A stretch of 64,000 nt of DNA from Dictyostelium discoideum (Eukaryota): positions 96,001 through 160,000 of the forward strand of contig CM000154.2 of the NCBI GenBank assembly GCA_000004695.1, written 5' to 3'. Below the pieces are notes generated by a model. That model did not search any database. It saw nothing but the letters and a program-made list of their open reading frames with translations, and was not told the DNA's origin. Positions 4,675 to 60,434 of the stretch are shown piece after piece. A program made the translations under genes and the position numbers. Each line of letters opens with the position of its first letter. Within the stretch, counting starts at the first letter, position 1.

Positions 4675-6275
4675 CTACAAACTCATTTGATAGAGCATAT
4701 TTTTTAAATATTCCTTATTGAAACGGTATAAATAAAACATTACACACACACCCATTAATAATAAAATTCCTAATCCAATTAAAAAATAAGGAATTGGATA
4801 ATTTGGTGATGGATAAAAATTACTACCCAAAATTACAGTGAAAAGAATTGCACTAAATATTGGTAAAATCATATGTCTGAAAAGTTGGAAATCTTTCGGA
4901 TGGTAAACTTTAACAAATCTAATTACGGCAATATTTGTAATTATGAATATTAAAATAACAGGGATTGTACTAGTGAAACTAATATAATCATAAACTTCCC
5001 AACTCGATTCTGTATAAATATTTTTAGTTGAACCAACAATAATTGACGACATTAAAATTATAAAACCAGTTAAACTAATGATTGCATTATGTGGAGTATT
5101 AAATTTTTGATTTGTTCTACCAAACCATGAAATAATTCCTTTCTCTTTAGTTTTACCAACTGAATAAATTATTCTAAAAACTATATTAAACCAACTACTG
5201 ATTACACAAAATCCAGAAACAACAGAAGTAATATCAATAATAACAGAATACCAAAATCCAATATATCTCTCTGCATAAACTCCAACTGTAAATTGAGATG
5301 TATCAATTGAAAATATATTTGAAGGTCCAACAGCAACAACCAATGAATACATTGCCAATATAAACCAAGTTGAAGCAAATGCAATTGAACCAAATACTGC
5401 AATTGGTATATTCTTTTTTGGATTTCTAGTTTCTTGACCTAATGTAGCGGCGCCTTCAAATCCAATAAAAATGAATGTGCAATAAACCAGACCAGTGGCA
5501 ATACCTGAAAAACCACCTGAATATTCACCAAACGGTGTGAGTGCTAATGGATAATTACCTTCATCACCACCTTTAATTACAATTGTAAATGATAGTACCA
5601 ACATTACCAAAGTTTCTAAAATCATTGTAATTATACTAGTTTTCAAAACAACATCAATGCCAATATATGCCAACGTTGGAATTATTGTAACAACAATTAT
5701 TAAACTTAATATCCATGGACAATGAAAATCAGAATATCTTGTTATTACATCTGAAAGTGGATTAACAAACATAAACATTGAACCCATCATATTTGCTAAA
5801 TATCCAATCATTAAAATCCAAACACTTAAAAATCCCATTTCATTTCCTAACCCTTTTGTAATATAAACAAAAAATGAAGCACTACTACTAATATACTATT
5901 TTTTTTTCAAAAATTTTATTGTTTTATTATCACTATTATTATTTTAATTTTACAATTTTTAAAAAATAAACATACTTTACCAAATATACTAATTGTATTA
6001 GCAAGTGTTAAACAACATAATGCACCAATAAAAATTGTAAATGGTACACTTGTACCTGCTGATGCTGCAATATTTGGAAAAACAAAAAATGTTGAAGCAC
6101 TCAATCCAATACCACCAACTGATAATGCAATACATTCAATTACACCAATAGTATTTTTTTTTAATCCATTATATAATAAATCATTTTCTTCTTTATTTGA
6201 CGAATTTATACCTTTATTTTCAATTATTACTCCTTCTTTTTGGAAATTTAGTATATTACTATTTTCTATACCCAT
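4675..6275 (-). CDS. APC-superfamily amino-acid permease, tandem paralog 3 (exon 1 5976-6275, exon 2 4675-5895)
   Basis: MGIENSNILNFQKEG...LKKNTIGVIECIALSVGGIGLSASTFFVFPNIAASAGTSVPF...ISIFGK is followed by a GTATGT donor. Acceptor ...aaatag precedes YISSSASFFVYITKGLGNEMGFLSVW. The exon structure is identical to copies 1, 2 and 4. Confidence 0.85.
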
Positions 6276-6524
6276 TTTTCGACAAAAAAAAAAAAATAAA
6301 TAAAAAATAAAATAGTTTACGCACTGTGAACCTTATTTTTATTTATTTTGTTTTTTTTCATATCCTAACTACAAACCCCGTACTCCAATAATAATAATTT
6401 TTTTTAGTATTGTTTATTATAAATTATTTGTTCATTATTTACTTTTTTATTTTATCTGAAAAAAAAAAAAAAAATTAATTAAACGGGTGCCGAAATAATT
6501 TTTTTTTTTTTTCTTTTTGTTTTT

Positions 6525-45256: not shown

Positions 45257-47280
45257 TTAAAGACCAATATAATATGATCTACCACCAACATTTTGAATTG
45301 GAGTAATTGTTGGTGATAATAAACACCATTCATACCAAACTTTACTCTTTGAAACATTTCTCCAAAATGCACATTTAGCTTTTATATTATTATTATTATT
45401 ATTATTTAAATTTCCATTTGAGAAATAAACTGGTTGTTTTAATGGGAAATAAATTGGAAACCAACTAAACATACCAGTTGAAAAATTACTTGGATTAATA
45501 CTTATATGAACATCTTTATATAGACAACAATCGAAATAACCAATGAAACCATGACAAGTGGTTGATGGAATTGTTAATTCAAATTCTAATGATTCATATC
45601 TAGAGTTATCAATGATTTCATCTCTATTTGGATGTGAGAATGTAAATAATGGTTTTGATTCTGCTAATTGATGGAAATTATGAGGTTTAACAACGTATGG
45701 TGTTTCTGAATGTTTTAAATCACCATAGGCAGTAACTTCATTAAAAAGTTTTGATGAACTAATTGGTGCAATATAAGAGGTATACCAAGTTGGAATACTA
45801 ATACCTGTATCTTTTTTTAAATATCTTTGTGCTCCATCTAAACATTCTGGACTTAATTCATTATCACCAAATGATCCTAATAATTCACTAACCATAATAT
45901 CTGCTCTATATTCTGTATTCCAATCTCTCATATCACTATCAATAACTGTAACAATTTCTTCCCATCCTTCCATTATAATTCTATTTCTTAATCTATTTAT
46001 TTAAAAAGAAATAATGATTAGATAATTTAATTTTTTTTTTTTTTTTTTTTTTTTTTTCAGTTTTTATTTAATATAGTAAATACTTACGTAACGATAGCGT
46101 TTGGATTTTTTTCAACAGCAAAAACTTTAACAAATTTATTAGCTTCAATTGAAGCTTGAATTGAAGAATTTACTAAAGGACCTCTACCAGCACCAACTAC
46201 CATAATAATGATTGGATCATCTTTTGAATCTTTTTTATCCAAATCCAATAAAGCCAATCTAACAGCATTTTGATATTGTTTATATTTGATTGGATCTTTT
46301 TCAAAGACTTCATAAGTTTGTGATTCTAAATTATCCATTAATGGTTGAAGTGGTGCTTGAAGGAAATCTAAATATGGCATTTCAAAGTATTCCTCTTGAG
46401 TTAATGGATTTTGATTTGTATGTAAAAATTTCAAATAGGTTTTGTAGTCTTTTAAAGTATCCATAGATGCACCACTAACAACAAATTGAATATTATAGTT
46501 GAATAGCTGTAAAAGAAATTGTTGATGTGCTTTTGATAATGTTGGAAAACCCGCTTTATTAGTTAAGAAAACTGATGTTGGTATAATTACACATTTCACT
46601 GGTTCACCTAACCATTGTTGTAATTGTTCTTTTGATGGTAAATCTGATGTCATCTCTAAAACTGCTGATAAATTTGGATGTTGATTACAAAGTAATCTAA
46701 AATTGTTCCACCATTCCCATGGATTATCATTATCAACTAAATTATTACCACTACCACCACTAGTATTATGATCTTGATAATAATCAAATTTATTCAATAA
46801 TTGTGATTTTGGTGAAACTAATGGTATTCTAATCCAAACTTTCATATAGGAAAGTGATTGGAGTGATTGATTTACAACTTGTGCATAATTTGTACTATTG
46901 AATGATGGTGTTGGTAAGAGAATTGATGGTAATGATAAATGTGCTGCCCATGATATCTCTTGTTTTAATGTTTTAACACTATTACTACGAATTGTTGGAT
47001 CAATTGAATCTAAATCTATACCATTGGTACTGGTTTTACCAACGATTGATGATCTCCAATAATTTGATTGTAATAATGTATCTGATCTTGTAAATGCTAC
47101 TTTGTTACTAAAACTATTACCAATTGATGCTTTGGTAAAATCACGATTAAATCTTGGATGTGAAATTGAGGTCATTATAAATTGATATTCCAAATCATAT
47201 GCACGCTCGATATCAAGTTGAATATCAACCGATTCTAATTCAACCCCACATGAAAATTCATATTGTGCACTATTTATCAT
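45257..47280 (-). CDS. prmt5: Protein arginine N-methyltransferase 5 (PRMT5); 2 exons 46088-47280 and 45257-45992
   Basis: The N-terminal TIM-barrel region (...[18 protein letters not shown]...[21 protein letters not shown]...) and the Rossmann region ([42 protein letters not shown]) are collinear with human PRMT5. A GTAAGT donor (phase 2) and an aaataaatag acceptor join to [86 protein letters not shown] (compare human [46 protein letters not shown]). The product is about 642 aa. Confidence 0.9.
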
Positions 47281-48714: not shown

Positions 48715-50939
48715 ATGACAATAGTTAGATCAATAGCAAATTCACAAATAATTTCAACACTAAGTAATCATAGTAATAAATTAGTATTAAATACATTTTT
48801 ACCACTATGCTATGGTTATAAAAAAAATTATTATTACCAAAATGCTAAAAAGTACTATTCAACCACCAATACAAATACACAATTTGTGAATGAAGAGGTA
48901 CCTGTTATTTATCTATTTATTTAATAATAATTTTATTATTATTTATTAACTTTTTATTTTATTTTATTTTATTTCATCTTATAAAGTTTAATAAAGCTAG
49001 AAAAATGATTGCAAAAGATTTACATAAGAAAACATTAGCATCAATGGAGAAAGCATATGGTATAATGACAGAATATGATAGAACTACATATAATAAATCA
49101 CCATTAGCATCATCATTAGGATCATTTAAAGATAGTATTGATCAATTAAAGGATAACTCATTTTTATTGGTAGTTGTTGGAGAATTCAATAGTGGTAAAT
49201 CATCATTTTTAAATGCATTATTAGGTGATAGATATTTGAAAGAAGGTATAACACCAACAACTCATAGAATCAATAGAATTGAATTTGGTGAAACGATATC
49301 ACAACATACGATTCCATCAAGATTAAGCAATACAGAACATGAAATCATTCAATTACCAGTGGAATGGTTAAAAGAGTTTTCATTAGTAGATACACCAGGT
49401 ACAAACGCAGTGATTGAAGGTCATCAAGAGATCACTGAACATTTCATACCAAAGAGTGATTTAGTATTATTTGTAACTTCAATCGATCGTGCATTCAGTG
49501 AAAGTGAAAAAATATTCTTAGAAAAAGTTAAAAAATGGGGTAAAAAGATCGTAGTAATCATTTCAAAGACTGATCTCATTGAAAATAATCCACTCTCTTC
49601 GAATGCACAATCTGAATTAAATGAAGTCATTAATTTTGTAAAAGATAATTTTAAATCACAATTAAATGTTGAACCAATGATTTTCCCATTAAGTTCAAAA
49701 TTAGCATTAAAAGCAAAATTAGAATTATCTTCATCAATTAATAATTTAAATAATAATTTAAATAATAATAATAATTCATCAAATATAAATTATAATAATT
49801 TACTATCATCAACATCAGTTGAACCAAATAATATCAATAATAATAATAAATATACACAAAAGTTTTATCAAGAATTAGAAAATAATATTAATTGGAAAAA
49901 GAGTAAATTTTTAGATTTAGAGAAATATATTTTACAATCATTGGATAGTAATGAACGTGTGAAATTAAAATTATTAAATCCATTGGGTGTTGCAGATAAA
50001 TTGTATTCAGAATTTGATGAAGAATATCGTTCTCAACAAAGTGTTTTAGATTTTGATTTTGAAAATATTAATTTAGCCGTGGCACAAATTAATGAACATC
50101 AAATCGATTTGAATAAGGATTTACGTCACCAATTGGAAAGAATTGATACTATACTCTTGAGAATGGAGAATAGAGCCAATACATTTTTAGATAATGAAAT
50201 TCAGTTTAGTAATCTTTTGAAATTGTTAAGAGGTGAAGAAATTAGAAACCAATTTGAAAAACACGTTATCGATGGCACCAATCAAGAGATTGAACAATTG
50301 GTTAGAAATTTAGTTGATAACATTGTCGATAAGAATACGAAAAGATGGAAATCGATCATTGATTTAATCAATCAGAAATCATCAAATAAATCTCAAAAAG
50401 TGGTTGGTTTCATTAGAGACACTCATGACTCTAGTGATTTCTCTTCGAATAGACAACAAACTATAAATGATATGGGTGAAAGAACCACTAAAACTTTATC
50501 ATCCTATGATAGAGATAACGAATCTTTATTGGTTAGTCGAGATATTAAAAATGCAATCTATCAAGCGATTCTATTCGAAGCTGGTACCGTTGGTGTTGCA
50601 ACCATCCTTTCAACAGCATTCTTTGATTTAACTGGTGTTTTAGGTATTGGTGCTTTAGCCATCACTGGTTTAGCTTGGGTACCATTTAAAAAAGCTCAAT
50701 TAAAACGTTCCATCTCTTCAAAGATTACAAATCTTCGTCTTCAATTACATGATACCATTCAAGATCATATTGGTGAAGAAATTAGGATTAGTTCAAATAA
50801 AATTCAATTAGGTATTCAACCTTATATCGATTTTACAAATAATGAAAGTAAAAAAATTAATGATTTATCAATTAAATTAGGTGAATGTAAAGATGAAAGA
50901 CAAACTTTAATTTATGATATTGAAAAATATTTTAAATAA
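48715..50939 (+). CDS. Dynamin-superfamily (Dynamin_N / BDLP-mitofusin-like) large GTPase with a C-terminal TM hairpin; possible 5' presequence exon 48715-48897
   Basis: The G1 motif is VVGEFNSGKSSFLNALLG, G2 is ITPTTH, G3 is LVDTPGT and G4 is ISKTD. Coiled-coil regions follow. A hydrophobic hairpin AILFEAGTVGVATILSTAFFDLTGVLGIGALAITGLAWVPF sits near the C-terminus. The upstream ORF MTIVRSIANSQIISTLSNHSNKLV...KKYYSTT looks like a mitochondrial presequence. The proposed splice uses a non-canonical GTACCT donor and a ttataaag acceptor (phase 0), so it is low confidence. Confidence 0.65.
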
Positions 50940-51099
50940 ATAAATAATAAATAACAATAACAATAACAATAACAATAACAATAACAAAAACAATAACAAT
51001 AAATAAATATATATATATAATGTATAAATAAAATAATGAATAATTATTTATTTTTTTATTATTTTTTATTATTTATTTATTTATTAATTAATTTACTAT

Positions 51100-51337
51100 T
51101 TACATAAAATCATCATCATCAAAATCATCATAGTTTTGTAATTCATTTCCCATGTGAATCTTTTTTGGTGCAACCTTTGTTTTTGTTTTATTACCACCTT
51201 TACCAGATTTTTCATTCTTTAATTTTTCATTAATTAAAACTGTTAAAGTTTTTGAAATATCATTCATATCTGATGATGATACATTAACTAAAACTTTTTT
51301 CATTAATGATTTAAAGAAAGTAGCATAATGAATTGAT

Positions 51338-51368
<31 letters not shown>

Positions 51369-51856
51369 CAAAAAATAATAATTAGTACATATAATCATAA
51401 ATCTTTTTTTTTTAAAAAAAAAATTAATATATTAAATATTTAATATTTACATCATATTTTAATAAATAATCAGAAACGATTTGAGAATATTGTTCAAAAT
51501 CTTTTTCAGTTTTTGGAATAAAAGTTGAAATTGGTTCACCTGATGATGATTCTTTAACGGATAAACCAGAGAATAAATTTTTACTGTTTTCTAAATCAGA
51601 TGCTTCTTGTAATTCTTTCTTTCTTTTCTCTTCTAAATAAATATCAAAGTCACCTTGTGGTTCTTTTAATTCTTTTTCTTTTAATTCAATTGCTCTTTGC
51701 AATGCTTGTTTCTTTGTTAATTGTTTAACAACTGGTTTTGGTGGTTCTTTAATTTCTTCTTCAACTTTTTCTACTTCATCTTCTGATGATGCATCCCATG
51801 CATCAACTTCTTCAACTTCTCTATTTTCATTAATCCATTTATCTTTTTGAAGGTCA

Positions 51857-51890
<34 letters not shown>

Positions 51891-52019
51891 AATATTTATT
51901 AATAATCAAATCTTTTTTTTTTTTTTAAAAAGAAATAATAAATAATAATAAAAAAAAAAAAAAAAAATAGAAAAAAAAAAAAAAAACTATTTTTGTCATA
52001 ACTTACTCCAATCTGACAT
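51100..52019 (-). CDS. eif3J: Translation initiation factor eIF3 subunit J; 3 exons (~52007-52019, ~51451-51857 and 51100-51339)
   Basis: A 13-nt first exon ATGTCAGATTGGA is followed by a GTAAGT donor. An aaag acceptor gives MSDW-SDLQKDKWINENREVEEVDAWDASSEDE... (acidic W-rich N-terminus). A GTAAAT donor follows ...LLKYD. A poly-A...aag acceptor leads into SSIHYATFFKSLMKKVLVNV...KVAPKKIHMGNELQNYDDFDDDDFM*, which matches the eIF3j C-terminal ...DYEDFM motif. The track ORFs contain poly-K from intronic poly-A. Confidence 0.75.
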
Positions 52020-54287: not shown

Positions 54288-54446
54288 TGTGAATTATTAT
54301 TATTCATTGTTATACAGATAACAAAAGTTAAATAATATATAATATATATTATTAAAATAAAACCGAAAAATATATGTAAATTAAATAAAAACATACCAAC
54401 TTGTACAGATTTCATCTTTTAAACATAAATATTAATATAATATAAA

Positions 54447-57588
<3,142 letters not shown>

Positions 57589-58224: not shown

Positions 58225-58823
58225 ATGAATTATAAAATATCAACTATTTTAATTTATCTAATTTTATATATAAATAAAAGTATACTTTCTTTTTCCAGAT
58301 TAAAATAATATTTTTTTTTTCTTTTTTTTTTTTTTCTCTAAACATAATTTTTTTTTATTTTTTTTTTTTTATTTTCCTTTTAGATTATGGACATAAAAAA
58401 ATAGAAGTGTTTATATCACCACATGAATATATAATAAAGAATGAAGAAGGATCAAATGTTCCAATAGTGTTATCACCAATTTGTAATATTTCATATTATC
58501 CAATTTTATTAATGGGTAAAAACTTATTAAAATCAAATAATAATAATATAAATAATAATAAAAATTCAATTTATATTGGAAAGATACCATGTACAGATGT
58601 TATTCAATTTAAAAATGATAGTAGTATACTTGAATACTATGGTGATATAAATAACGATTTAGATAGTTTTGATAATTATTCACTCGATAAACAATATATA
58701 AATATTTTATTAAATTATACAAACAAACATTCAGATATTGAAATATTGAAATGTAATTTACAAACTAAATTTATATCACCTCCTGATCTTTTAGAACAAG
58801 ATATCTATATTGCTATAAACAAC

Positions 58824-58866
<43 letters not shown>

Positions 58867-59045
58867 GTAATAATGAAGATATGCATGAATCACAAAATTA
58901 TATTCTTTATAAAGGAGTATCAAAATATCAAAGTAACACAGATATTTGTAATAGTCATAGTCAATGTTTATTAACTATTTGTTTATGTGACTCATTTTCT
59001 TTGGATGGTCCATTGTGTAATCTTAAAACTGATAATAGTGATAAT

Positions 59046-59125
<80 letters not shown>

Positions 59126-60434
59126 TAGTAAAAGAAAATTTTTAAAAGAAAATAATTATAAAATAAATAAGAAACAACCATTGTATAATCAAAAATTACC
59201 AGAAATAATTTATTCAAATTCAAATAGTAGTTGGACAATAAGATTTACAGAGATTAGAATAGCTGGTGTAGATAATAGAGATATTAAATCAATTTATTAT
59301 AACCAATTCATTCAATTCTTTCATCATGATTGGTCAATTAAAAAACTTTATAAATTAAATGATAATAATTATTATGAAAAAGATAATTCTAGTGACAGTA
59401 ATATTAATGAAGAAGAGTCAGAAGAAGAAGAAGAAGATAATAATAATAATAATGATGATGATGATGATCAAGTTTATAGATATAAATTAATAACATCAGA
59501 TATTAGTATAAATATCGAAGTTTATACTATTAATAATAATAATTCAAATATTTTATTAAATGATAGATTTAAATATTATAAAATTGGTGATATTTTAATA
59601 TCAATAACATTATCAAATGTTTCAACACCATTAAAAACTGGTTATAGATTTAAAATGGTATTTGAAGTTCAAACTAATATTCAACAAAAACCAATTTGTG
59701 GTATCAATAGTGATCTTGATCCATTCGAATTTGAATATGGTAAAAATTTCAATGGTGATCTTAAATGGCTTTCAACTACAAGTAATTTCTCAACATTATA
59801 TACAAGATTTAATGTTGATAATTTAAATAATAAAAATAATAATAATAATAATAATAATAATAAACTACAATATTATAATGAAATAGATAATGGTGTATCA
59901 TTTGATATTATTAAAGATCCATATAATCAAATTAAGGGTAATTCAGAAGTTTTCATTTTTTTTGAACCTTTTAATGATAGTATTACAATTTATTCAGATT
60001 TTAAAATTTTAGGATTTATTGAATTTCCAAATATTTCTCATCATCCATGTAAAGAAGTTTTACCAATTGCTGATGCTACTGTTTATTTAATACCAACAAT
60101 TATTCCTGTAATATCACTAGCTTTAATTTGTTTAGTTAGTGTTGTTGTTAATTTAGTTAAAACTAATAATGCTTCACTACAGTTTAATAGGTTTGGTAGT
60201 AATTTTAAATCAATAGATGATACTGATAATAATTCAAATAATATTTCAAATAATAATAATAATTCAAATAGTAATAATTCAAATAATAAATATAATAATA
60301 ATAAATTAAAAAGTTATAATGAACCACTTTTTAAAACCAATTTCCAAGATATAGATGAATATTTTAATACAAGTATTAGTAATATACATTCAATTGGTTG
60401 TAATGGTGCTTTAACTGATGAGAATTTTATTTAA
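58225..60434 (+). CDS. Asn-rich type-I membrane protein (signal peptide, large N-rich ectodomain, single C-terminal TM); exons 58225-58279 and 58384-60434
   Basis: The signal-peptide exon ATG MNYKISTILIYLILYINK is followed by a GTATAC donor (phase 1). A ttttag acceptor leads into (N)YGHKKIEVFISPHEYIIKNEEG..., in frame with track ORF 58407. The TM is LIPTIIPVISLALICLVSVVVNLV. Multiple (AAT)n tracts encode poly-N. Confidence 0.5.

Follow-up and report, generated by a model that had tools for sequence, protein, structure and literature searches.

Within the window analyzed here, a 64,000-nucleotide stretch of Dictyostelium discoideum DNA, a two-exon gene occupies positions 48715–50939 (positions are those of the window, and all features described below lie on the + strand). 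The main open reading frame (49005–50939) codes for 644 amino acids, and an upstream open reading frame begins at position 48715. Joining exon 1 (48715–48897, codons 1–61, with the ATG at 48715) to exon 2 (48987–50939, codons 62–711 followed by a TAA stop) keeps the frame and removes an 89-nt intron (48898–48986, 10% G+C, as read from the sequence). Exon 1 thereby contributes an N-terminal extension, a putative mitochondrial presequence. Since the intron starts with GT and finishes with AG, the splice is canonical, and not non-canonical as had been suggested in an earlier note on this DNA; every other feature of the gene was found where that note had placed it. The spliced 711-amino acid product matches DDB_G0287331 of D. 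discoideum AX4 (P0001; 100% identity over 100% of the length), the product of an annotated but uncharacterized gene. In a full-text literature search, the sole match to DDB_G0287331 was a 2021 review, where the entry reads "Similar to Fzo-1, function unknown" (PMC8565484). The mere existence of the gene is therefore not new.

The flanking genes (PRMT5, eIF3j-like, and TAF5-like) are ordinary nuclear genes, which excludes contamination. In the D. purpureum orthologue (locus L081), an intron is present at the same codon position (…VNED-gtaggt…tttctag-FKTKK). Orthologues from other Dictyostelium species are 70–93% identical to the D. discoideum protein and thousands of homologues were found elsewhere, so that the gene is far beyond what could be expected by chance; Dictyostelia, Myxogastria, and Variosea have all retained it. 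A pseudogene, a contaminant, or a mis-annotated locus can be ruled out, given that the motifs are intact and conserved, that the intron is conserved as well, that the composition resembles that of the host, and that the neighbors are ordinary nuclear genes.

DDB_G0287331 is a dynamin-superfamily GTPase of the BDLP/mitofusin structural class that contains neither a PH nor a GED domain. Its dynamin-type GTPase domain (49158–49703, about aa 119–300) matched the Pfam Dynamin_N model at 2.4e-24 and scored 86.7 bits, where the cutoff is 27. The four motifs of the domain, G1 (GEFNSGKS, 49179–49202, aa 126–133), G2 (PTT, 49254–49262, aa 151–153), G3 (DTPG, 49389–49400, aa 196–199), and G4 (SKTD, 49563–49574, aa 254–257), are intact and are invariant or nearly invariant in an alignment of 39 homologues. 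No match to PH, GED, or Fzo_mitofusin was returned by the Pfam scan at E ≤ 1. The GTPase domain is followed by an Asn-rich low-complexity insert (49728–49886, aa 309–361, 41% Asn), which is Dictyostelium-specific: homologues from outside the dictyostelids and from bacteria lack it (about columns 434–500 of the alignment), and the confidence of the AlphaFold model is low at its residues 323–345. Further downstream lies a helical bundle region (49887–50501, aa 362–566) that is collinear with the bacterial homologues and corresponds to the neck/trunk, or HB1/HB2, of BDLP-type proteins; long helices are modeled here at residues 382–465, 477–523, and 544–566.

A hydrophobic helical hairpin (50556–50684, aa 585–627), composed of helix 1, a turn formed by D608-L-T, and helix 2, is the predicted membrane anchor. 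Residues 584–630 make up the sole strongly hydrophobic stretch of the protein, with a Kyte-Doolittle 19-aa mean of up to 1.73 and a next best value elsewhere of 0.93. The mean exceeds 1.2 in the hairpin region only, and the scan revealed no second hydrophobic segment anywhere in the protein and no signal-peptide-like hydrophobic N-terminus. In the AlphaFold model, the hairpin appears as a helix-turn-helix with the turn at 606–610, while the confidence over residues 592–618 is low. Residues D608, G611, A619, G622, and P627 are invariant in the alignment, and E592 is nearly so. The turn carries a net charge of −1 and the 16 residues downstream of the hairpin a mean charge of +4.05 (39 sequences), and the combination of an acidic turn with a positive downstream flank thus fits the positive-inside rule. 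The hairpin is Gly/Ala-rich, its hydrophobicity is borderline (about 1.7), and it contains the nearly invariant Glu; judged by this composition, it could be a monotopic paddle instead of two true transmembrane spans. The remainder of the protein is a C-terminal amphipathic helix (50685–50936, aa 628–711) at the position of mitofusin HR2. It is conserved among the homologues, with E659, P673, and E681 invariant, and is modeled as part of a single continuous helix spanning residues 611–710 (pLDDT about 80–90).

The N-terminal extension of the D. discoideum protein is essentially exon 1, whose product contains seven K+R and two D+E residues. Over residues 1–67, there are 9 K+R, 2 D+E, and 13 S+T residues, the first acidic one being residue 60. 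Residues 1–48 (48715–48858) form a putative cleavable presequence, with the presumed cleavage site at an R-3-like processing motif, K46-Y-Y/S49-T. Most homologues from Amoebozoa, and several from other eukaryotes, carry a motif of the form [RK]-x-[FYLMI]-[ST]-[T..] close to where the extension ends (KYYST, RSFTT, RVMST, RRLST, RQFSD, and RLIST are examples). The D. discoideum extension is Asn/Tyr-rich and has a modest helical hydrophobic moment (0.36); AlphaFold places a short helix at aa 2–12, and the confidence of the model is low over aa 1–55. An N-terminal extension of 33–128 aa was present in every eukaryotic homologue examined, and the eukaryotic extensions in the alignment (A1) are basic, rich in Ser/Thr, and poor in acidic residues. 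In contrast, all bacterial homologues lack the extension and start at about residue 65 of the D. discoideum protein. Extension-bearing homologues occur in plastid-less eukaryotes, namely, in Amoebozoa, Naegleria, Percolomonas, and Syssomonas. The earlier note had proposed that a Ser/Thr- and basic-rich upstream reading frame supplies a targeting peptide, and exon 1 indeed resembles an organelle-targeting presequence, which we regard as putative. Its further observations on the protein, i.e., G1–G4 motifs that fit Dynamin_N, no PH/GED domains, long coiled coils (seen as long helical bundles in the AlphaFold model), and a C-terminal hydrophobic hairpin, also agree with the results above.

Sequence comparisons indicate that DDB_G0287331 is an FZL-type (bacterial/chloroplast) dynamin-like GTPase, and not a true mitofusin. 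In a database of 5.8 billion sequences, bacterial proteins from Caldilineaceae and further Chloroflexota, labeled "dynamin family proteins" and about 585 aa long, matched over the full length at 36–39% identity and about 1e-124. Arabidopsis FZL (P0121) matched the D. discoideum protein with 30% identity (2e-54) over aa 42–462, and could be aligned full-length, hairpin included, with the Physarum orthologue (2e-72) and a Caldilineaceae protein (2e-81). The signatures GEFNSGKS, LKEG.xPTT, VDTPGTN, and ER.RLKL..P are common to the D. discoideum protein, bacterial DLPs, and FZL, and plant and green-algal FZL-like proteins (P0344, P0352, P0367, P0377, and P0384) were within the top 150 matches to the amoebozoan profile. 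MFN1 was matched at ~4e-3 in a single-sequence phmmer search and at 1.8e-9 with the family profile, and Fzo1 was matched at 1.4e-6 with the profile. Among solved structures, the best family-profile matches were Cj-DLP1 (4.6e-20) and BDLP (7.8e-17), and the full-length Foldseek matches were headed by Nostoc BDLP (3e-16), followed by SynDLP, Campylobacter DLP1/2, IniA, and MFN1/2. Of the mitofusin/BDLP-like architecture put forward in the earlier note, the structural class, the hairpin, and the lack of PH/GED domains stand, while the identity as a mitofusin does not, since the similarity to MFN1/Fzo1 is weak and the Fzo_mitofusin domain is absent. Bacterial DLPs and FZL came far ahead of MFN1/Fzo1 by score, so that mitofusins are not the closest relatives by sequence.

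A neighbor-joining tree was built from 120 sequences (564 trimmed columns, 100 bootstraps). Dictyostelia, green FZL, a Heterolobosea-like group, and Caldilineaceae were each recovered with 100% support. A 14-sequence amoebozoan core was recovered at 46%, and a single eukaryotic clade in 0 of 100 replicates. Because the tree lacks support at this level, we claim neither an ancestral eukaryotic origin nor a specific horizontal transfer. Over the trimmed columns, the similarity to Caldilineaceae DLPs was 0.39 for the D. discoideum protein and 0.48 for the Physarum protein, and the similarity to other eukaryotic versions was 0.28–0.36.

We propose, at a probability of roughly 60%, that DDB_G0287331 is an FZL-type GTPase that is imported into mitochondria, anchored in the inner membrane, and faces the matrix, where it may remodel membranes from inside. 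The presequence specified by exon 1 would carry the protein through the inner membrane and, since no hydrophobic stop-transfer segment follows it, the ~500-residue part comprising the GTPase and the helical bundles should reach the matrix. The C-proximal hairpin would then hold the protein in the inner membrane; its acidic turn of three residues would point to the intermembrane space, and the positively charged C-terminal helix would lie back in the matrix. This topology is predicted from a presequence without an N-proximal transmembrane segment, the C-proximal hairpin, and the +4 downstream flank; the first of these features would be incompatible with mitofusin-style insertion into the outer membrane and argues for a location at the inner membrane, on its matrix side. 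GTP-dependent dimerization of G domains, along with movement of the helical bundles about their hinges, could lead to membrane tethering and remodeling, as in other BDLP/mitofusin-class proteins. The protein would act on those surfaces of the inner membrane or cristae that face the matrix, and the outcome might be fusion, branching, or repair. Parallels are provided by chloroplast FZL, which acts on thylakoids from the stroma, and by the trypanosome protein TbMfnL, which acts on the inner membrane from the matrix. We infer import and topology from the features listed, and the cellular function of DDB_G0287331 purely by analogy.

The most notable reading in the earlier note was that of a genuine functional orthologue of mitofusin/Fzo1, i.e., a protein anchored by its hairpin in the outer membrane, with a cytosolic GTPase, that fuses outer membranes. 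We consider this very unlikely, as the Fzo_mitofusin domain is missing, the similarity to MFN1 and Fzo1 (see values above) is far below that to bacterial DLPs and FZL, and the protein has a conserved presequence-like extension that mitofusins do not have. Moreover, of the closest characterized proteins built in this way, FZL faces the stroma and TbMfnL the matrix.

Other explanations concern the site of action or the process involved. The protein could be a horizontally acquired bacterial DLP that functions outside mitochondria, in repair or defense at the plasma membrane, contractile vacuole, ER, or phagosome, with an extension that is mere low-complexity sequence. The higher similarity of the amoebozoan proteins to Caldilineaceae DLPs than to eukaryotic versions, the 0/100 bootstrap value for eukaryote monophyly, and the weak amphipathicity of the D. 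discoideum extension are in line with such a scenario, as is the role of bacterial DynA and IniA in membrane repair (bioRxiv 10.1101/2023.06.28.546890). We nevertheless regard it as improbable, for compositionally biased extensions, often with an R-3-like motif, are found in essentially all eukaryotic homologues of several supergroups and in no bacterial ones, and the N-terminus is not of the signal-peptide type. Furthermore, the conserved intron, host-like composition, and conservation across three amoebozoan groups imply that any transfer was ancient and that its product is host-integrated. Alternatively, the protein may be mitochondrial yet take part in division at the inner membrane or in the matrix together with the FtsZ homologues FszA and FszB, in the manner of bacterial DynA at the septum. 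Dictyostelium mitochondria retain bacterial-type FtsZ division proteins (PMC7016976; PMC13585573), some bacterial DLPs are tied to cytokinesis and septal membrane curvature (bioRxiv 10.1101/2023.06.28.546890), and a matrix-side protein is topologically inside the constriction neck. However, the characterized relatives FZL and TbMfnL favor fusion or interconnection over division, which makes a role in division unlikely as well.

A matrix-facing, FZL-type GTPase would be of interest in Dictyostelium, whose mitochondria undergo fusion and division about once a minute, with the classical dynamins DymA and DymB being dispensable (PMC3492061). Work on mitochondrial dynamics in this organism up to 2026 centers on the FtsZ homologues. 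DDB_G0287331, which is intact, conserved, and accessible to genetics, is a candidate for a component of the Dictyostelium mitochondrial fusion/shaping machinery, and the papers on mitochondrial dynamics covered here make no reference to it. Compared with the "Fzo1-like" label, the FZL-type assignment shifts the predicted site of action from the outer membrane to the matrix face of the inner membrane, and the expected phenotype to crista or inner-membrane connectivity. It also links chloroplast FZL, matrix-side TbMfnL/MidX, and a large uncharacterized Chloroflexota DLP family, which have so far been treated apart. Judging by the sequences of presequence-type homologues from Naegleria, Percolomonas, Syssomonas, and many amoebae, our analysis suggests that matrix-side dynamin-like remodeling is more widespread than current reviews imply. 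A more far-reaching idea, which we put forward as a doubtful possibility, is that the FZL-type family is not confined to plants and chloroplasts but is eukaryote-wide (Amoebozoa, Heterolobosea, the holozoan Syssomonas, red algae, glaucophytes, cryptophytes, haptophytes, and Rhizaria), and mitochondrial and matrix-facing in plastid-less lineages. In Dictyostelium, which has no Mfn, Opa1, or Mgm1 and does not need DymA/DymB for mitochondrial dynamics, the missing GTPase would then be DDB_G0287331, and it would fuse or interconnect cristae and inner membranes from inside. If so, chloroplast FZL and mitochondrial "FZL-like" proteins would represent two uses of one bacterial machine.

Solved bacterial DLPs (Nostoc BDLP, 2J68/2J69; Campylobacter DLP1/DLP2, 5OWV; IniA, 6J72; and SynDLP, 7ZW6) share with the D. 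discoideum protein a G domain, a helical neck/trunk, and a membrane-inserting hairpin or paddle, but are just 13–20% identical to it and belong to other bacterial subfamilies. Its true bacterial orthologues are uncharacterized single-gene Chloroflexota proteins, and not tandem pairs. In bacteria, the DLP is a lone gene; at 8 out of 19 loci, the ORF that follows it is GNAT-like and about 177 aa long, and no operon partner informative on function was found at the 19 bacterial DLP loci. Mitofusins MFN1/MFN2 and yeast Fzo1 reside in the outer membrane, face the cytosol, and lack a presequence, whereas the D. discoideum protein has a presequence-like extension; the Fzo_mitofusin (HR2) domain of mitofusins is undetected in it (Pfam, E ≤ 1). 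MidX, encoded by protists and giant viruses, is a predicted or demonstrated matrix-side inner-membrane remodeler in eukaryotes without Opa1/Mgm1 (PMC10280142). It belongs to the core DRP clade as a sister to Mgm1, and not to the family described here, and the identity of the gene as MidX was ruled out; D. discoideum does not appear in the MidX study, from which mitofusins and BDLPs were left out (PMC10280142). Dynamins are not mentioned in the Acanthamoeba mitochondrial proteome paper.

TbMfnL (Tb927.7.2410) of Trypanosoma brucei is an integral protein of the inner membrane that faces the matrix, as was shown by means of protease protection and carbonate extraction; cells that overexpress it display GTPase-dependent hyperbranching, and the knock-outs have no visible phenotype (bioRxiv 10.1101/2023.06.28.546890). 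By description, its layout is that of the D. discoideum protein: a cleavable MTS (putative in D. discoideum), a GTPase, a helical region, and two adjacent C-proximal transmembrane segments, with no N-proximal one. Bacterial homologues of TbMfnL lack only the MTS, and the topological argument is the same as the one we make for the D. discoideum protein, with TbMfnL being the one for which it is confirmed experimentally. According to its authors, the TbMfnL family is absent from plants, is represented in Amoebozoa by just Acanthamoeba and Dracoamoeba, and has bacterial kin in the PVC group and Proteobacteria; Dictyostelium is not mentioned in that paper (bioRxiv 10.1101/2023.06.28.546890). The relatives of the D. 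discoideum protein are, in contrast, FZL and Chloroflexota DLPs, and because of this difference it may form a sister or a separate family to TbMfnL. A homologue search seeded with a divergent eukaryotic protein (P0273) returned eukaryote-like proteins and Caldilineaceae DLPs only, and did not reach named kinetoplastid or stramenopile proteins.

A further close parallel is FZL of plants and green algae (for example, Arabidopsis At1g03160). Both FZL and the D. discoideum protein have a helical region, a C-terminal helix, and an N-terminal organelle-targeting peptide (putative in D. discoideum), and both contain the G-motif signature LKEGV.PTT and a hydrophobic hairpin that ends with P-[YF]-[KR]-[KR]. 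FZL is chloroplast-targeted, with the stromal face of the inner envelope or thylakoid as its location, works from the stromal side (PMC6436760; PMC10280142), and contains an extra N-terminal TMP/TenI-like domain (PF02581) that the D. discoideum protein lacks by Pfam. The homologues from red algae, glaucophytes, and heterotrophs are not long enough to accommodate the TMP/TenI domain, which looks like a green-lineage addition. The amoebozoan proteins are nearer to Chloroflexota DLPs than to FZL. Dictyostelium has no plastid, and the position topologically equivalent to the stromal face of FZL would be the inner membrane of its mitochondria, on the side of the matrix.

Within the AT-rich D. discoideum nuclear DNA of the window, DDB_G0287331 occupies two forward-strand exons: exon 1 (48715-48897, 61 codons, ATG at 48715) and exon 2 (48987-50939), in which the frame continues to a TAA stop at 50937-50939. 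The 89-nt intron between them (48898-48986, 10% G+C) is a canonical GT..AG intron, and the non-canonical splice suggested in the earlier note is not needed. The spliced product of 711 amino acids matched the annotated AX4 protein, recorded as [quoted passage not shown], over its full length with 100% identity. The D. purpureum orthologue has an intron at the identical codon position; the intron sequences of the two species are unrelated, while the adjoining coding sequence is conserved. Four other Dictyostelium species carry orthologues (70-93% identity).

The surrounding genes are ordinary nuclear ones, and include those for PRMT5, an EH-domain protein, and a Ctr copper transporter. The PRMT5 arginine methyltransferase (45257-47280, reverse strand) appears as two adjacent ORFs of 398 and 238 amino acids that jointly cover the TIM-barrel, catalytic, and oligomerisation domains, and is evidently a single gene interrupted by a short intron. 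A convergent downstream gene (51100-51909, reverse strand) encodes an eIF3 subunit (eIF3j-like) domain (1.1e-15) and apparently comprises two or more ORFs (51424-51909 and 51100-51303), separated by an AT-rich intron with a long T tract. Forward-strand ORFs at 54447-57588, with a TFIID NTD2 domain and a WD40 propeller, resemble a multi-exon TAF5-like gene; GC skew is strongly negative (to -0.86) and G+C is raised at 54350-55100. A 675-aa ORF (58407-60434, forward strand) had no Pfam match at E<=0.001. Long poly(A)/poly(T) tracts and a (AAATTAAA)n-like repeat lie upstream of DDB_G0287331 (48085-48110, 48310-48330, 48480-48515, and 48605-48645), and a hexanucleotide microsatellite, (AACAAT)n, directly follows its stop codon (50940-51000).

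Pfam identified Dynamin_N in the protein (2.4e-24), plus generic GTPase families, and, at E<=1, no PH, GED, or Fzo_mitofusin domain. Both the fit of the G1-G4 motifs to Dynamin_N and the absence of PH and GED, as noted earlier, were thus borne out. The motifs GEFNSGKS (G1, residues 126-133), PTT (G2, 151-153), DTPG (G3, 196-199), and SKTD (G4, 254-257) are intact, and an alignment of 39 homologues shows little or no variation in them. Residues 309-361 form a Dictyostelium-specific, 53-residue insert containing 41% Asn. An AlphaFold2 model built on the same alignment (mean pLDDT 71.4) has very long helices after the G domain and then a helix-turn-helix (570-605/611-710), whose second arm continues into the C-terminal helix; confidence was low for residues 1-55, parts of the Asn insert, and the hairpin core (592-618). 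The C-terminal hydrophobic hairpin described earlier corresponds to residues 585-627 of this helix-turn-helix, the only hydrophobic segment of the protein (19-residue Kyte-Doolittle mean up to 1.73, versus at best 0.93 elsewhere). Its three-residue turn contains an invariant Asp (residue 608, 50625-50627), and the first hydrophobic helix has a nearly invariant Glu (residue 592, 50577-50579) at its midpoint; conservation of the two residues extends from Chloroflexota to amoebae. A conserved buried acidic residue is unusual in a simple membrane anchor, and may have a role in lipid interaction or fusion.

A single-sequence search of solved structures returned IniA (6.7e-7), Nostoc BDLP (8e-7), and MFN1 (~4e-3). 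With a family profile, the matches were Campylobacter DLP1 (4.6e-20), BDLP (7.8e-17), DLP2 (8.1e-11), MFN1 (1.8e-9), and Fzo1 (1.4e-6), while Foldseek placed BDLP on top (3e-16), followed by SynDLP, Cj-DLP1/2, IniA, mitofusins, LeoA, and Fzo1. These structure-profile matches and the Foldseek ranking show that the mitofusin/BDLP-like architecture proposed earlier is correct as a fold class. In protein searches, amoebozoan orthologues (Tieghemostelium, Polysphondylium, Cavenderia, Acytostelium, Filamoeba, and Physarum; 38-49% identity) were followed by several hundred bacterial "dynamin family proteins" of ~585 residues (35-39% identity over ~85% of the query, E ~1e-124). In a scan of one genome per prokaryotic species, the bacterial proteins came mostly from Chloroflexota (Caldilineaceae, Anaerolineae, Thermoflexales, and Ktedonobacteraceae), with some from Acidobacteriota. 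Collinearity extends from the N-terminus of the bacterial proteins (D. discoideum residue ~65) to the C-terminus, hairpin included. At 8 of 19 Chloroflexota loci (L003, L008, L012, L016, L020, L028, L035, and L060), the homologue is followed by a same-strand, GNAT-acetyltransferase-like ORF of ~175-200 codons, at about 5500-6350. No second dynamin gene adjoins the homologue, unlike the DLP1/DLP2 and LeoABC arrangements.

The G1-region signature of DDB_G0287331 resembles that of plant FZL. An FZL fragment, used only as a probe, matched the Arabidopsis "Probable transmembrane GTPase FZO-like, chloroplastic" (912 residues) with 100% identity, and the BLASTP comparisons used database sequences. 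In BLASTP, Arabidopsis FZL aligned with the D. discoideum protein (2e-54, 30% identity), with that of Physarum (2e-72, 30% identity, full length with the hairpin and C-terminal helix), and with a Caldilineaceae protein (2e-81, 32% identity, full length). Searching 1.84 billion cluster representatives with a profile of 16 eukaryote-like sequences gave 1,214 matches at E<=1e-30. The best 150 of these included proteins from further Amoebozoa (Planoprotostelium, Vermistella, Clastostelium, and Paramoeba), Heterolobosea (Naegleria lovaniensis, N. fowleri, and Percolomonas), the holozoan Syssomonas, the red algae Eucheuma and Galdieria, the glaucophyte Cyanophora, the cryptophyte Hanusia, the haptophyte Calcidiscus, and the rhizarian Mataza, as well as proteins of ~870-1020 residues with a long N-terminal region that group with plant FZL (neighbour-joining, 100% bootstrap). 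Judged from these alignments and from membership in the profile search, DDB_G0287331 belongs to the FZL-type branch of bacterial DLPs, and not to the mitofusin family. The earlier observation is confirmed, and its interpretation holds in part: it was right on fold class and on a presequence-like first exon, and wrong on mitofusin identity, as close relatives are bacterial DLPs (~1e-124) and FZL (2e-54), and MFN1 reaches only ~4e-3. Five metagenomic proteins from eukaryote-like contigs of up to 87 kb (P0273, P0292, P0312, P0385, and P0423) form a distinct group of presequence-bearing homologues, 680-860 residues long, with large low-complexity inserts.

The eukaryotic homologues all begin with 33-128 extra residues, an N-terminal extension absent from the bacterial proteins. 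In the alignment, the extensions contain many Lys/Arg and Ser/Thr and few acidic residues. That of D. discoideum is encoded essentially by exon 1, a putative presequence exon, as the earlier note had it; the extension contains 7 K+R versus 2 D+E, with the first acidic residue at position 60, and its helical hydrophobic moment is only moderate (0.36). Near the end of the extensions, a motif [RK]-x-[FYLMI]-[ST]-T recurs (KYY/ST in D. discoideum, RSF/TT in D. purpureum, RVM/ST in Filamoeba, RQF/SD in Planoprotostelium, and RLI/ST in Syssomonas; the slash marks the putative cleavage), resembling R-3-class sites of the matrix processing peptidase. The equivalent peptide of photosynthetic lineages sends FZL to the chloroplast. 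Since Amoebozoa, Heterolobosea, and Syssomonas are not known to have a plastid, the obvious destination there is the mitochondrion, to which the extension probably targets the protein.

In a crude neighbour-joining analysis (120 sequences, 564 trimmed columns), subgroups were robust and a single eukaryotic clade was recovered in 0/100 replicates. Identity over trimmed columns was 0.39-0.48 between amoebozoan and Caldilineaceae proteins, versus 0.28-0.36 between amoebozoan and other eukaryotic versions. Both an old eukaryotic gene with fast evolution in some lineages and one or several ancient transfers from Chloroflexota-like bacteria are compatible with these results. P0296, labelled "MAG: dynamin family protein [archaeon]", grouped with sequences from the amoebozoans Paramoeba and Vermistella (P0307 and P0244 are in this part of the tree) and not with bacterial proteins; either mis-binning of a eukaryotic contig or a genuine transfer may explain this.

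DDB_G0287331 was annotated before this analysis and has been pointed out in a review. Matrix-facing members of the dynamin superfamily have also been described, as has FZL. The literature search returned a single paper naming DDB_G0287331, with the BLAST-based entry "Similar to Fzo-1, function unknown" (PMC8565484), and no paper that treats FZL as a dynamin and also names Dictyostelium, the sole co-occurrence being an unrelated WNT-signalling review. The present analysis corrects the assignment from Fzo1-like to FZL-type, finds FZL-type proteins with putative presequences to be widespread among plastid-less protists, and makes DDB_G0287331 a tractable candidate for the mitochondrial membrane-dynamics machinery of Dictyostelium (PMC3492061).

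In the model that we propose, the putative presequence is followed by no hydrophobic stop-transfer segment, and the GTPase and helical bundles would therefore reach the matrix. The acidic three-residue turn and the strongly positive downstream flank (mean net charge +4.05 over the 16 residues past the second hairpin helix, 39 sequences) predict, by the positive-inside rule, that both ends lie on the matrix side, which should equal the orientation of the bacterial homologues relative to the cytoplasm. By analogy, G domains would dimerise, and GTP-driven hinge movements would bring about tethering, fusion, or interconnection of inner-membrane or crista surfaces on the matrix side, or, alternatively, the protein would repair them. 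This cellular role is the weakest step of the model, and a division-related or a non-mitochondrial role is possible.

The proposed matrix-facing arrangement has a counterpart in Trypanosoma brucei TbMfnL, for which the same topology argument was confirmed experimentally: this protein, built of an MTS that is cleaved off, a GTPase domain, and two C-proximal TM segments, resists carbonate extraction and is shielded from proteinase K in mitoplasts, and its overexpression causes GTPase- and TM-dependent mitochondrial hyperbranching (bioRxiv 10.1101/2023.06.28.546890). TbMfnL homologues were reported mainly from Euglenozoa, SAR, haptophytes, and cryptophytes, with PVC and proteobacterial relatives, none in plants, and, among Amoebozoa, only in Acanthamoeba and Dracoamoeba; Dictyostelium is not named in that paper (bioRxiv 10.1101/2023.06.28.546890). 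Because of this taxon range, DDB_G0287331 may belong to a sister family of the same design. The predicted matrix-side action can likewise be compared with that of FZL, which works on the stromal face and promotes the fusion of thylakoids (PMC6436760; PMC10280142).
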